NCBI RefSeq assembly: GCF_965216805.1
Contig: NZ_CBDCGN010000003.1
Coordinates: 953,841-1,017,840 of the forward strand
Length of the DNA stretch: 64,000 nt
Source: Panacagrimonas sp.
Lineage (GTDB): Bacteria; Pseudomonadota; Gammaproteobacteria; Nevskiales; Nevskiaceae
Direction: 5' to 3'
Shown in pieces: positions 41,746 through 44,353 of the stretch. Position numbers and translations under genes: made by a program. Position 1 is the stretch's first letter, and each line of letters starts with the position of its first letter. The notes below the pieces were generated by a model. The model had not been told where the DNA came from. It was given only the letters and a program-made list of their open reading frames with translations, and searched no databases.

Positions 41746-42168
41746 CTAGCGGATCGACTGCTCGGCCAGCCACTGTTCCAGAATCACTCGCGCGGCTTCG
41801 CCATCGCGATCGCCCTTGCGCACGCGGCGTTTCATGCGTCCGCTGGCGCGGGCGTCGCGTAGCGCGTCGTCGGCGGCGCGCGAGGAATAGCGCTCGTCGG
41901 CCAGATGCACGCAAAGCCCGCTGCGCCGTCGCAACTGTTCCGCGAACTGGCGTGCCAGGGTGGTGATGTCCTGCTCGCCGCCGTCCTCGTCCAACGGCAG
42001 GCCCACGATCAGCGCCTCGGGCCGCCATTGCGTCAGCAGTCGCTCGATCCCCGGCCAGTCGGGTTGCGTTGACGACCTCAGCGCCGGCAGCGCCCGCGCC
42101 GTGCCGGTGAGCGTGTCGCCCACCGCAACGCCGATGCGCTTATGGCCGAAGTCGAAAGCGAGAAACAT
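41746..42168 (-). CDS. ruvX: YqgF/RuvX pre-16S rRNA nuclease / Holliday junction resolvase-like protein
   Basis: [27 protein letters not shown] and [10 protein letters not shown] motifs. Confidence 0.93.
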
Positions 42169-42366
42169 GATTTAGGCGTTAGGGCCGGAGCGACACGAGC
42201 TTACGCGAGTGCCTGGCCTTGGCACTCGCGTGCGTCGGTCCGGCGGGCGGTAGCCCCGGAGCGGCCTGAGATGCCGGGCAGGGCTTACGCCCAAAGCGCG
42301 CAGCGCACGTCCTTACGCCTGAATTTGGGCTACCCCTGACTCCACTCAATGAAGCTTATATGTAGG

Positions 42367-42588
42367 TTAGTCATACACATCAGGTAGGCCGCCTGACACC
42401 AGAAGGATTAAATCTCTTTCCGATTTGTCCCTGTACCCATCTTTTGCCTTTCGCATCGCGAAGATGTGCCCAGACCCAGGATTGTTCTCTAATCCTTCTG
42501 CCTGAAGAAATTTTGCGTACTCATCCTTGATCCGCTGATCATCTAAGTGTTTCCAGTACAGCTCATTAGGTGTGCCGTTCTTTGCCAC
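42367..42588 (-). CDS. AT-rich 73-aa orphan hypothetical protein
   Basis: GTG start with GAGG upstream. 42361-42600 is 47% GC by hand count, well below the flanking genes. An open frame in AT-rich DNA is less likely to arise by chance. Confidence 0.55.
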   Translation of the reverse strand: MAKNGTPNELYWKHLDDQRIKDEYAKFLQAEGLENNPGSGHIFAMRKAKDGYRDKSERDLILLVSGGLPDVYD

Positions 42589-42639
42589 AAGAGCCTCATG
42601 TGTCGCGAGATCTGCCTAACGCCTCGTTCGACGCCTGCT

Positions 42640-43344
42640 TCAGGCGTGCCCCGCACCGCTGCCGATCTGGGTGACGTCCAGGCCCAGCAGGCGCGTCGCC
42701 GACTGCCAGCGGTTGCGCGCCGGAAGATGGAACAGCACCTGGCGGTCCACCGGCGTGTTGAGCCAGGAGTTCTGCAGGATCTCGTCCTCGAGCTGGCCCG
42801 CGCCCCAGCCGGCGTAGCCCAGGGTGACCAGGAATTCCTTGGGGCCGCGGCCTTCGCCGATGGCGGCCAGCACATCGCGCGAGGTGGTGATGAACAACTC
42901 GTTGCCGATCGGCATGCAGGATTCCCAGCCGCCGGGTTCGCGATGCACCACGAAGCCGCGCTCGGGCTGCACCGGGCCACCCCAGAACACCACATGGTCC
43001 ACCGCATCCATCGACTCGTGCGCCACGCCCATCTGGTCGAGCATCGCGGTCAAGGTCAGATCGGTAGGCCGGTTGATGACCAGCCCGATAGCGCCGCTGT
43101 CGTTGTGTTCGCACAGCAGCGACACGGTCTGGCGGAAGTTCTCGTCCTCCAGCCCCGGCATGGCGACCAGGAACTGGTTCTTCAGAGTAGAGGCCAGGTC
43201 CTGCAAGAAGCGCTCGGAGCGCAACTGGGCCTCGGCCTTGGGCTCGTCGCCGTCGTGGGCTTCGAGCGCGCTGCGGCAGTCGGCCAGCGGGGCGCCGGTG
43301 GCCTTGCGCAGGCGGCGGACAGCGGTGGTGGTGATGCGTGGCAT
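42640..43344 (-). CDS. yqgE: YqgE/AlgH family protein with N-terminal EF-Ts-like UBA domain
   Basis: FLVAMPGLEDENFRQTV, EHNDSGAIGLVINRP, GGPVQPERGFVVH, LGYAGWGAGQLEDEI motifs. The N-terminal 45 aa resemble the EF-Ts N-terminus. Confidence 0.9.
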   Translation of the reverse strand: MPRITTTAVRRLRKATGAPLADCRSALEAHDGDEPKAEAQLRSERFLQDLASTLKNQFLVAMPGLEDENFRQTVSLLCEHNDSGAIGLVINRPTDLTLTAMLDQMGVAHESMDAVDHVVFWGGPVQPERGFVVHREPGGWESCMPIGNELFITTSRDVLAAIGEGRGPKEFLVTLGYAGWGAGQLEDEILQNSWLNTPVDRQVLFHLPARNRWQSATRLLGLDVTQIGSGAGHA

Positions 43345-43387
43345 GGGGTGCAGTATCCGGCGCCGGCTCGGGCCGGGCAAGACGGCC

Positions 43388-44353
43388 TCAGTCCTGGCCG
43401 GCGAAGCGGCGTGCCAGCGCGTCCATCAGCTTGCCGCCGATATCGGTGCCGTAGGCGGCATCGATTTCGCGCGCGCAGGTGGGGCTGGTGACATTGATCT
43501 CGGTCAGGTACTCGCCGATCACGTCCAGACCCACGAACACCAGGCCGCGGCGGCGCAGTTCGGGTCCGACCGCGGCGGCGATACGCCGATCGGCGTCGGA
43601 CAGCGGCTGCGGCCGGCCGCTGCCTCCAGCCGCCAGGTTGCCGCGCGTCTCGCCGGCCATGGGAACCCGCGCCAGGCAGTAAGGCACCGGCTCGCCGTCG
43701 ATCATCAGCACGCGCTTGTCGCCGTCGACGATGGCCGGCAGATACTTCTGCGCGACAATCATGCGCTGACCCTGATCGCTGAGCTGCTCGATCACCGCGC
43801 CCAGGTTCAGCCCGTCGGCCCCCACCCGAAAGATGCCGCTGCCGCCCATGCCGTCCAGCGGCTTGTAGATGACATCGCCGTGCTCGGCATGAAAGGCCCG
43901 CAAGGTCGCGGCATCGCGCGCGAACAGGGTCGGGGGGGCCAGCTCGGCAAACCAGGCGGTGAACAGTTTTTCGTTGCAGTCGCGCAGGCTTTGCGGCCTG
44001 TTGAGCACCTGCACGCCAAGCGCCTCCGCGCGTTCGAGCACGTAGGTGCTGGCGATGTAGTGCATGTCGAACGGCGGGTCCTTGCGCATCAGCACGGCAT
44101 CGAGTTCGCCCAGCGGCAGCACGCGCGCCTCGCCCTGCCATTCGAACCAGCGACTGCGGTCGTCGCGCACGCTCACTGTTCGCATGCGGCCGAACGGCAG
44201 GCCGTCGCGCACCAACAGGTCGGACTGCTCCAGGTATTCCAGGTGCCATCCGCGTGCCTGCGCCGCCAGCATCAGCGCCAGGGTGGTGTCCTTGTAAGGC
44301 TTGATGGACCCGATGGGGTCCATGACGATGCCGATGCGTCGGGTCTTGCTCAT
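43388..44353 (-). CDS. gshB: glutathione synthetase
   Basis: IVMDPI...KDTT, VLMRKDPPF, NEKL, KPLDGMGGSGIF, DGDKRV, RGNLAAGG, GLDVIG and EINVTSPT motifs. Confidence 0.97.
   Translation of the reverse strand: MSKTRRIGIVMDPIGSIKPYKDTTLALMLAAQARGWHLEYLEQSDLLVRDGLPFGRMRTVSVRDDRSRWFEWQGEARVLPLGELDAVLMRKDPPFDMHYIASTYVLERAEALGVQVLNRPQSLRDCNEKLFTAWFAELAPPTLFARDAATLRAFHAEHGDVIYKPLDGMGGSGIFRVGADGLNLGAVIEQLSDQGQRMIVAQKYLPAIVDGDKRVLMIDGEPVPYCLARVPMAGETRGNLAAGGSGRPQPLSDADRRIAAAVGPELRRRGLVFVGLDVIGEYLTEINVTSPTCAREIDAAYGTDIGGKLMDALARRFAGQD

Follow-up and report, generated by a model that had tools for sequence, protein, structure and literature searches.

The window analyzed here, a stretch of 64,000 nucleotides from a Panacagrimonas genome (contig NZ_CBDCGN010000003.1), carries on its minus strand a yqgE gene whose 5' part encodes an additional domain resembling the N-terminus of EF-Ts. 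As outlined in Table 1, the fused gene is flanked by gshB and ruvX. Its open reading frame runs from an ATG at 43344-43342 to a stop codon at 42640-42642, and the encoded protein begins MPRITTTAVRRLRKATGAPLADCRSALEAHDGDEPKAEAQLRSERFLQDLASTLKNQFLVAMP. An earlier note on this DNA, made from the letters alone, had quoted an N-terminal peptide in frame with YqgE, which is indeed present in this reading frame, and had delimited the unusual segment as 43200-43344, a span that covers the complete domain (43210-43344) together with a part of the linker behind it. Full-length relatives of the fusion protein comprise 229-255 residues at 60-87% identity. Both gshB and ruvX lie on the same strand as the fused yqgE, ruvX/yqgF being the conserved neighbor of YqgE/AlgH genes and gshB that of gammaproteobacterial ones. 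The reported adjacency to YqgF holds in so far as ruvX/yqgF is the downstream neighbor, but the two genes are separated by a 470-bp low-GC insert, which is present in this genome only.

Table 1 Features of the fused yqgE locus (positions in the window).
Feature	Positions	Strand	Length or basis of assignment
CDS, EF-Ts_N-YqgE/AlgH fusion protein	42640..43344	-	234 aa + stop; ORF translation, full-length relatives
Three-helix (UBA-like) domain similar to the EF-Ts N-terminus, residues 1-45	43210..43344	-	Profile, AF2, Foldseek, dN/dS
Variable linker, residues 46-53	43186..43209	-	Alignment variation, dN/dS 0.82
YqgE/AlgH (DUF179, UPF0301) domain, residues 54-234	42643..43185	-	PF02622, NF001266, Foldseek
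Sigma-70-like promoter	43352..43380	-	Phylogenetic conservation
gshB (glutathione synthetase), upstream neighbor	43388..44353	-	PF02955, PF02951
ruvX/yqgF, downstream neighbor	41746..42168	-	PF03652, E 2e-35

The larger part of the protein is unambiguous. The Pfam profile DUF179/AlgH-like (PF02622) matches residues 63-221 over all of its positions (1-157 of 157) with an E value of 1.7e-50 and 171.5 bits (cut-off 27), and the NCBIfam model NF001266, the YqgE/AlgH equivalog, assigns 230 bits to the fusion protein compared to a cut-off of 198. The CEH motif (C78 E79 H80) is invariant in the YqgE domain. When the full AF2 model was searched with Foldseek, ranks 1 to 8 were all occupied by YqgE/AlgH structures (2aj2, 2haf, 2ew0, 2mui and others; E 1e-17 to 4e-7, TM (target) up to 0.85), followed by EF-Ts chains. 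Residues 54-234 are a canonical YqgE/AlgH domain. The structural-genomics entry of one of these structures, the Vibrio homologue 2haf, bears the title "putative translation repressor". While E. coli-type YqgE proteins start only a few residues ahead of the motif NQFL(I/V)AMP, this motif begins at residue 56 of the fusion protein, which thus carries about 50 surplus residues. Between the two domains, the linker of the fusion relatives varies from 8 to 30 residues in the alignment, is frequently acidic and differs in both length and sequence.

Start codon and promoter of the fused gene

The DNA of all 14 genomes of the genus, and of one genome each from two other Nevskiaceae genera (G016 and G026), was read at the yqgE locus, and in every case the extension is in frame and has an ATG at the equivalent place. 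Across the 14 sampled species of the genus the extension shares 63-88% protein identity. Pairwise Nei-Gojobori comparisons among these 14 members put the median dN/dS of residues 2-45 at 0.37, compared to 0.82 in the 8-residue linker and 0.16 in the AlgH domain. The extension is under purifying selection.

Upstream of the ATG we found a promoter with the -35 element TTGCCC (43380-43375), a spacer of 17 nt and the -10 element GATACT (43357-43352), which ends 7 nt ahead of the start codon. The layout TTGnnn-N16-18-nATAcT-N5-7-ATG recurs at 30 of 33 loci, fused and unfused genes included, while the spacer sequences vary. A simple promoter scan did not report the element because only 8 of the 12 consensus positions match and the scan needs 9. 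No Shine-Dalgarno sequence is present ahead of the ATG at 43344. A -10 element ending 5-7 nt before the ATG suggests a leaderless or near-leaderless mRNA, which would account for the missing Shine-Dalgarno sequence, and a conserved yqgE promoter of this putatively leaderless type is herewith documented for the Nevskiaceae. Since the promoter abuts the ATG of fused and unfused genes alike, the extension appears to have been inserted directly behind the ancestral yqgE start codon. A longer ORF of 246 residues with a TTG start (TTG 43380) was rejected, as this TTG is the first triplet of the conserved -35 element and the added residues are not conserved.

Judged from these sequence comparisons, the extension is translated from the ATG at 43344. 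A start downstream of the segment, which the earlier note had named as a reason to abandon the fusion, does not agree with the protein conservation, the dN/dS of 0.37 or the promoter placed 5-7 nt from the ATG. Public annotations are inconsistent in this respect. The gene call for the window genome (P0011) is 185 aa long, its first codon being a CTG (residue L50), and two further Panacagrimonas MAG records, P0049 and P0051, are 188 aa long with downstream starts; the latter two match, with identical cores, DNA loci in which the extension is encoded. For most database entries the long form was called. Several records, that of the window genome included, therefore truncate the EF-Ts-like domain, which flags a systematic annotation error.

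Resemblance of the extension to EF-Ts

The earlier note had assigned the extension to the UBA-like N-domain of EF-Ts and had asked for a profile search. With the single window sequence, the Pfam profile EF-Ts_N (PF25025) matches residues 7-44, i.e. within 1-44, with an E value of 3e-6 and 27.5 bits, below its gathering score of 33.2; the same profile is already precomputed on many close relatives of the fusion protein, and on some relatives the automated Pfam assignment places both domains side by side. Of the tsf model TIGR00116 only positions 1-44 of 293 match the extension (E 3.7e-7, 25.5 bits versus a cut-off of 104). A single-sequence phmmer search of the 57 N-terminal residues against all PDB chains returned eight sequences, all of them EF-Ts. 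A profile built from 14 orthologous extensions retrieved eight distinct EF-Ts sequences from the PDB with E values from 5.6e-12 to 1.7e-6, among them EF-Ts of M. tuberculosis (7vmx, 5.6e-12), E. coli (1efu, 2.6e-11) and Thermus (5e-8) as well as mitochondrial EF-Ts (8e-8 to 2e-6). In every case the two sequences align colinearly, starting with residue 1 of both. Against this profile, the best of the remaining UBA-like domains reached an E value of 3e-3, about nine orders of magnitude behind EF-Ts.

Structure prediction gave the same picture. AF2 modeled a three-helix bundle (helices 6-16, 20-29 and 34-53, pLDDT 83-92) both in the whole protein and in the extension alone. For the domain-only model the top Foldseek matches were the EF-Ts chains 9a75_A, 7vmx_A, 4pc3_C and 1efu_B, and superposition on EF-Ts N-domains resulted in an rmsd of 0.8-1.6 Å over 41-45 residues at 36-46% identity, while the generic UBA domains of NAC, USP28 and HYPK ranked behind EF-Ts. 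As the profile matches are confined to EF-Ts and the nearest structures are EF-Ts as well, the domain is to be regarded as EF-Ts N-terminal by descent, beyond a mere UBA-like bundle. The resemblance is far above chance and specific to EF-Ts rather than to UBA domains in general, and the assignment of the earlier note is borne out by profile and structure alike.

Among 75 unique fused domains, T16, G17, C23, A26, L27 and A37 are invariant, and conservation reaches 90% or more at L12, A18, G32, D33 and L41. The signature residues of the EF-Ts N-domain (TGA turn, D-C-K-x-A-L in helix 2, G-D...A in helix 3), and with them the pattern L-R-x-x-T-G-A, D-C-x-x-A-L and G-D-x-x-x-A pointed out previously, are thus retained at the key positions; the conserved positions are also conserved in the EF-Ts of the order. 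In the M. tuberculosis EF-Tu/EF-Ts complex (7VMX), N-domain residue R13 contacts P114 and E155 and K24 contacts D144 and D145 (PMC9529903). The fusion protein has R13 and R24 at the corresponding alignment positions. Of the 75 domains, 72% carry R at position 13, with Q or H taking its place in roughly one quarter, and 89% carry R or K at position 24. The helix D of the genome's EF-Tu is canonically acidic (VEDEELLDLVEMEVRDLL). In contrast to these retained residues, three positions that are invariant in EF-Ts are replaced in the fused domains: G19 by T, S or P (mostly T/S), M20 by L and E39 by A. The extension also evolves faster than bona fide EF-Ts N-domains, since it shares 46% identity with the N-domain of the genome's own EF-Ts, while the EF-Ts N-domains of the family share 75% among themselves. 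The replaced invariant positions and the variation at R13 indicate that the original EF-Tu interface may be weakened or retargeted.

Unlike EF-Ts, the extension is not followed by the core, dimerization or C-terminal modules and has no TDFV motif. In EF-Ts, the TDFV motif of the core (D80/F81 in E. coli) drives GDP release. Because core and motif are absent, nucleotide exchange is not expected of the fusion protein. A resident full-length tsf is located elsewhere in the genome (289.9 bits on TIGR00116), two tuf copies are present as well, and full-length tsf is retained in every fused genome examined. The fusion protein is hence neither EF-Ts nor an exchange factor, and its extra domain is best described as a putative docking module.

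Distribution and origin of the fusion

YqgE/AlgH proteins occur in about one third of bacterial genomes. Whole-genome searches detected yqgE in 179 of 187 genomes of the order Nevskiales. The fusion, whose distribution the earlier note had wished to see surveyed, was found in 16 of these 179 genomes, all of them Nevskiaceae: the 14 genomes of the window's genus, named Panacagrimonas by NCBI, and G016 and G026; some fused outliers bear the NCBI name Solimonas sp. Apparent fusions in eight genomes of other genera (G040, G027, G030, G025, G124, G109, G107 and G156) were discarded, as the long alignments turned out to be spurious and the DNA revealed unfused genes. In G009 and G024 the matches set in only at residues 30 and 32, respectively, and hence do not contain the EF-Ts-like domain.

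In a tree of the AlgH core, the fused proteins appear at no fewer than five well-supported places among unfused ones, corresponding to nine changes, five of which are forced by strongly supported branches. In a tree of the N-domains, 74 fused domains lie on one side of a branch and 27 genuine EF-Ts N-domains of the same order on the other; the low support of this split (57) is attributable to the mere 41 columns of the alignment. The fused domains share 46.3% identity with the EF-Ts of their own family and 44.1% with the EF-Ts of other families, a slight difference that has the same direction in 76% of them. In the simplest history, the fusion probably originated once, by duplication of the 5' end of tsf in an ancestor within the Nevskiaceae and after the yqgE start codon, and was then lost several times. 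The repeated loss and the occurrence in 16 of 179 genomes imply that the EF-Ts-like domain is dispensable for YqgE function.

Outside the order, the fusion was sought in samples, on which its absence beyond the Nevskiales rests. Of 401 evenly sampled gammaproteobacterial genomes, only about five had any second EF-Ts_N-like match, and among the 80 gamma- and betaproteobacterial yqgE loci listed only the Panacagrimonas locus was fused. A search of the 57-residue extension against a library of 1.8 billion representative proteins yielded 35 matches at E ≤ 1e-3, consisting of one YqgE-fusion cluster representative, EF-Ts fragments and polyproteins, UBA-repeat proteins and L12-repeat proteins; none of the 35 was another bacterial architecture clearly sharing the extension domain. 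The long matches with two matched stretches are presumably multi-domain proteins of the PETs/EF-Ts_N type. A word-indexed search with residues 1-57 returned a single protein and shares too few words to inform on the distribution. Within this sampling, the EF-Ts-like domain was added to YqgE in certain lineages of the Nevskiaceae only and is not a general feature of the protein. The pairing of EF-Ts_N with YqgE is not mentioned in the literature searched, and the architecture is new for the known YqgE/AlgH family.

Proposed function and comparison with known systems

The literature on YqgE provides the setting in which the fusion may be read. A 2024 Nature study singled out E. coli YqgE as a major factor behind dormancy after starvation and antibiotic persistence: the protein prolongs the lag after starvation, increases persistence and reduces stationary-phase protein expression, with Lon being epistatic, and the mechanism was left unexplained (PMC11634777). 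Furthermore, the ClpC1 unfoldase was found to trap plastid DUF179 proteins (PMC8889267), mutation of algH makes P. aeruginosa sensitive to HOCl (PMC7950407), and a role as redox sensor has been suggested for AlgH (as cited in PMC7950407). As for the partner domain, the N-domain of EF-Ts and L7/L12's C-terminal domain have been proposed to bind helix D of EF-Tu via a common motif (Wieden 2001 and Kothe 2004, as cited in PMC6110070 and PMC3299993).

On this basis the N-domain may tether YqgE to helix D of EF-Tu, a proposal derived from the sequence for which we judge the chances to be even. As in EF-Ts, the N-domain would still dock on EF-Tu at acidic helix D of the G domain, and would serve as a handle delivering the YqgE domain to EF-Tu. 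In the bound state it would keep EF-Ts, and L7/L12 on the ribosome, away from the shared EF-Tu surface, while the fusion protein, which has no core domain, could not catalyze GDP release. As an outcome, the YqgE activity, proposed to be that of a regulator sensing redox state or linked to proteases, would be recruited to EF-Tu, or the recycling of EF-Tu would be slowed. In the fusion, the repression of translation and the promotion of dormancy that were reported for E. coli YqgE could then be hard-wired. On the other side, the isolated N-domain is only a part of the EF-Ts interface, and its binding to EF-Tu may be weak. The divergence from the resident EF-Ts N-domain, the replaced invariant positions, the repeated loss of the fusion and the score below the PF25025 gathering cut-off likewise count against the proposal.

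From the fusion we infer, as from a Rosetta stone, a link of YqgE to EF-Tu and translation, as the earlier note had suggested, and the published genetics of E. coli YqgE strengthen it (PMC11634777). Fusion to the EF-Tu-docking part of EF-Ts turns a vague connection to translation into a specific YqgE-EF-Tu hypothesis, and the case illustrates the reuse of the EF-Ts N-domain as a putatively portable docking module in bacteria. Tentatively, and in our view doubtfully, this could be extended to the YqgE/AlgH family as a whole, with E. coli YqgE and P. aeruginosa AlgH acting directly on EF-Tu. YqgE might then sense redox state or starvation and respond by sequestering EF-Tu, by preventing EF-Ts from recycling it or by passing it on to Lon/Clp, and the docking domain borrowed from EF-Ts by the Nevskiaceae would merely strengthen an existing YqgE-EF-Tu contact. 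If true family-wide, an action of YqgE on EF-Tu would explain the translational shutdown and the prolonged dormancy of persister cells.

Other readings of the extension have to be weighed against docking on EF-Tu. The EF-Ts-derived domain might have been retargeted to a different partner or to self-association; candidates would be a translational GTPase other than EF-Tu, a site on the ribosome or, by analogy to eukaryotic UBA adaptors, an AAA+ protease (Lon, ClpA/C) with its N-domain. This possibility, which we regard as rather unlikely, draws on the faster evolution of the domain compared to true EF-Ts N-domains (46% versus 75% identity), on the replacement of G19, M20 and E39 and on the versatility of the fold, the generic UBA one, for which many binding partners exist and whose representatives NAC, HYPK and USP28 follow EF-Ts in the Foldseek ranking, and also on the ties of YqgE to Lon by genetics (PMC11634777) and of DUF179 proteins to ClpC1 (PMC8889267). 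It is opposed by the EF-Ts specificity of the similarity, some nine orders of magnitude in E over other UBA-like domains, and by the basic EF-Tu-contact residues, which are mostly kept; in the literature searched, no precedent of a bacterial UBA-to-protease adaptor was found.

That the extension is an evolutionary leftover, a translated and functionless duplicate of the tsf 5' end tolerated on the N-terminus of YqgE, appears improbable to us. Its repeated loss within the family, a selection weaker than that on the AlgH domain (dN/dS 0.37 versus 0.16) and the fact that most YqgE proteins function without it would fit such a view, but a leftover would hardly be kept, at 63-88% protein identity, by every one of the 14 species sampled from the genus, with a dN/dS well below that of the adjoining linker (0.37 versus 0.82), with core and basic surface residues invariant or nearly so in 75 distinct domains and with a confidently predicted fold (AF2). 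Scarcely credible, finally, is an untranslated extension, with the true start around residue 50 and the EF-Ts-like frame as a leader. The downstream starts of P0011 (185 aa) and of P0049 and P0051 (188 aa) and the missing Shine-Dalgarno sequence at 43344 speak for it, but the short call for P0011 has to begin at a CTG (L50), frame and ATG are conserved in every member of the genus with substitutions constrained at the protein level, the promoter precedes the long-form ATG by 5-7 nt just as in the unfused relatives, and most database entries give the long form, to which the DNA matching the P0049 and P0051 cores also conforms.

With docking on EF-Tu as the working proposal, the fusion protein can be set beside four known systems. 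Closest to its extension is the EF-Ts N-terminal domain itself (PF25025/UBA-TS-N; residues 1-54 of E. coli EF-Ts; 1efu, 4pc3, 7vmx and 2cp9), with which it shares the three-helix fold, the alignment from Met1 onward and the signature L-R-x-R-T-G-A...D-C-(K/R)-x-A-L...G-D-x-x-K-A-x-x-x-L-R. The C-terminal domain of ribosomal protein L7/L12 resembles it in the proposed contact with helix D through the motif shared with the EF-Ts N-domain (according to the reports cited above), and the extension would compete for this surface; L12-CTD repeat proteins gave weak matches to the extension in the library search, but overall fold and context of the L7/L12 domain are different and no family-level homology to the extension is detectable. 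The plastid PETs polyprotein (PSRP-7/EF-Ts) and other multi-domain EF-Ts_N proteins likewise harbor EF-Ts-type N-domains inside larger architectures. They contain whole EF-Ts units including the exchange core, whereas the window fusion has copied the docking domain only, onto an unrelated protein. The YqgE/AlgH family (E. coli YqgE, P. aeruginosa AlgH PA0405) matches the remainder of the protein in fold, in the high full-length score and in the gshB/ruvX context, and the unfused relatives within the Nevskiaceae share the promoter layout with the window gene. In contrast to the described members of this family, which are single-domain proteins of about 185-190 aa, the window protein adds an N-terminal domain of 45 residues and a linker.

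Start sites and the YqgE domain

The public gene calls for the genome of the window (P0011) and for two Panacagrimonas MAGs (P0049 and P0051) start about 46-50 codons too late, in one of the three cases at CTG, and thereby hide the EF-Ts-like domain. Among metagenomic gene calls, the long form carrying this domain is in the majority. Within the YqgE domain of the fusion protein P0001 the Cys-Glu-His triplet was found to be invariant (120/120 aligned relatives); it could be the redox-sensing or catalytic site that has been proposed for AlgH.

Positions of the features discussed (window coordinates unless a contig of the window genome, G000, is given)
Feature	Position	Details	Basis
Cys-Glu-His triplet	~43105-43113	residues 78-80 of P0001, YqgE domain	alignment
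Predicted promoter TTGnnn-N16-18-nATAcT	43352-43380	equivalent place in yqgE loci L004-L038	conservation
Low-G+C stretch	42300-42640	~470 bp, between yqgE and ruvX	G+C content
ORF within low-G+C stretch	42367-42588	minus strand, 73 aa, begins MAKNGTPNELYWKHLDDQRIKDEY	
tuf copy 1	G000:C3:206657-207853		EF-Tu model score
tuf copy 2	G000:C2:490159-491355		EF-Tu model score

Other EF-Ts_N-like and repeat proteins

Weak library matches of the N-terminal EF-Ts-like part of P0001 (P0125, P0141, P0153, P0127 and P0128) include proteins composed of repeated L7/L12 C-terminal-domain segments, with DUF6793, as well as proteins that carry 4-6 UBA domains in tandem. In one of the latter the UBA domains are joined to BspA-type leucine-rich repeats. 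Such repeat architectures, made up of EF-Tu-surface-like or UBA modules, are unusual. A few other gammaproteobacterial genomes (G403, G389, G351 and G383) contain a second EF-Ts_N-like match, a short one located outside tsf. Some of these matches are located in open frames of no more than 52-75 aa or at contig ends; the matches could represent fragments or domains that stand alone. The two tuf copies of the window genome gave identical EF-Tu model scores.

Surroundings of yqgE

Downstream of yqgE, the G+C content drops to 46-49% compared to ~68% in the flanking DNA, and in relatives ruvX follows yqgE directly, without an intervening stretch. This segment looks like a small foreign insertion; a Pfam search with its ORF gave no match. 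Upstream, 30 of 33 Nevskiaceae loci have the conserved promoter at a distance of 5-7 nt from the ATG of yqgE, which implies that the yqgE mRNA would be leaderless and transcribed from its own promoter just after gshB. In P. aeruginosa, by contrast, a gshB-tonB3-algH-yqgF operon is predicted, whereas a separate yqgE promoter after gshB is implied for Nevskiaceae.
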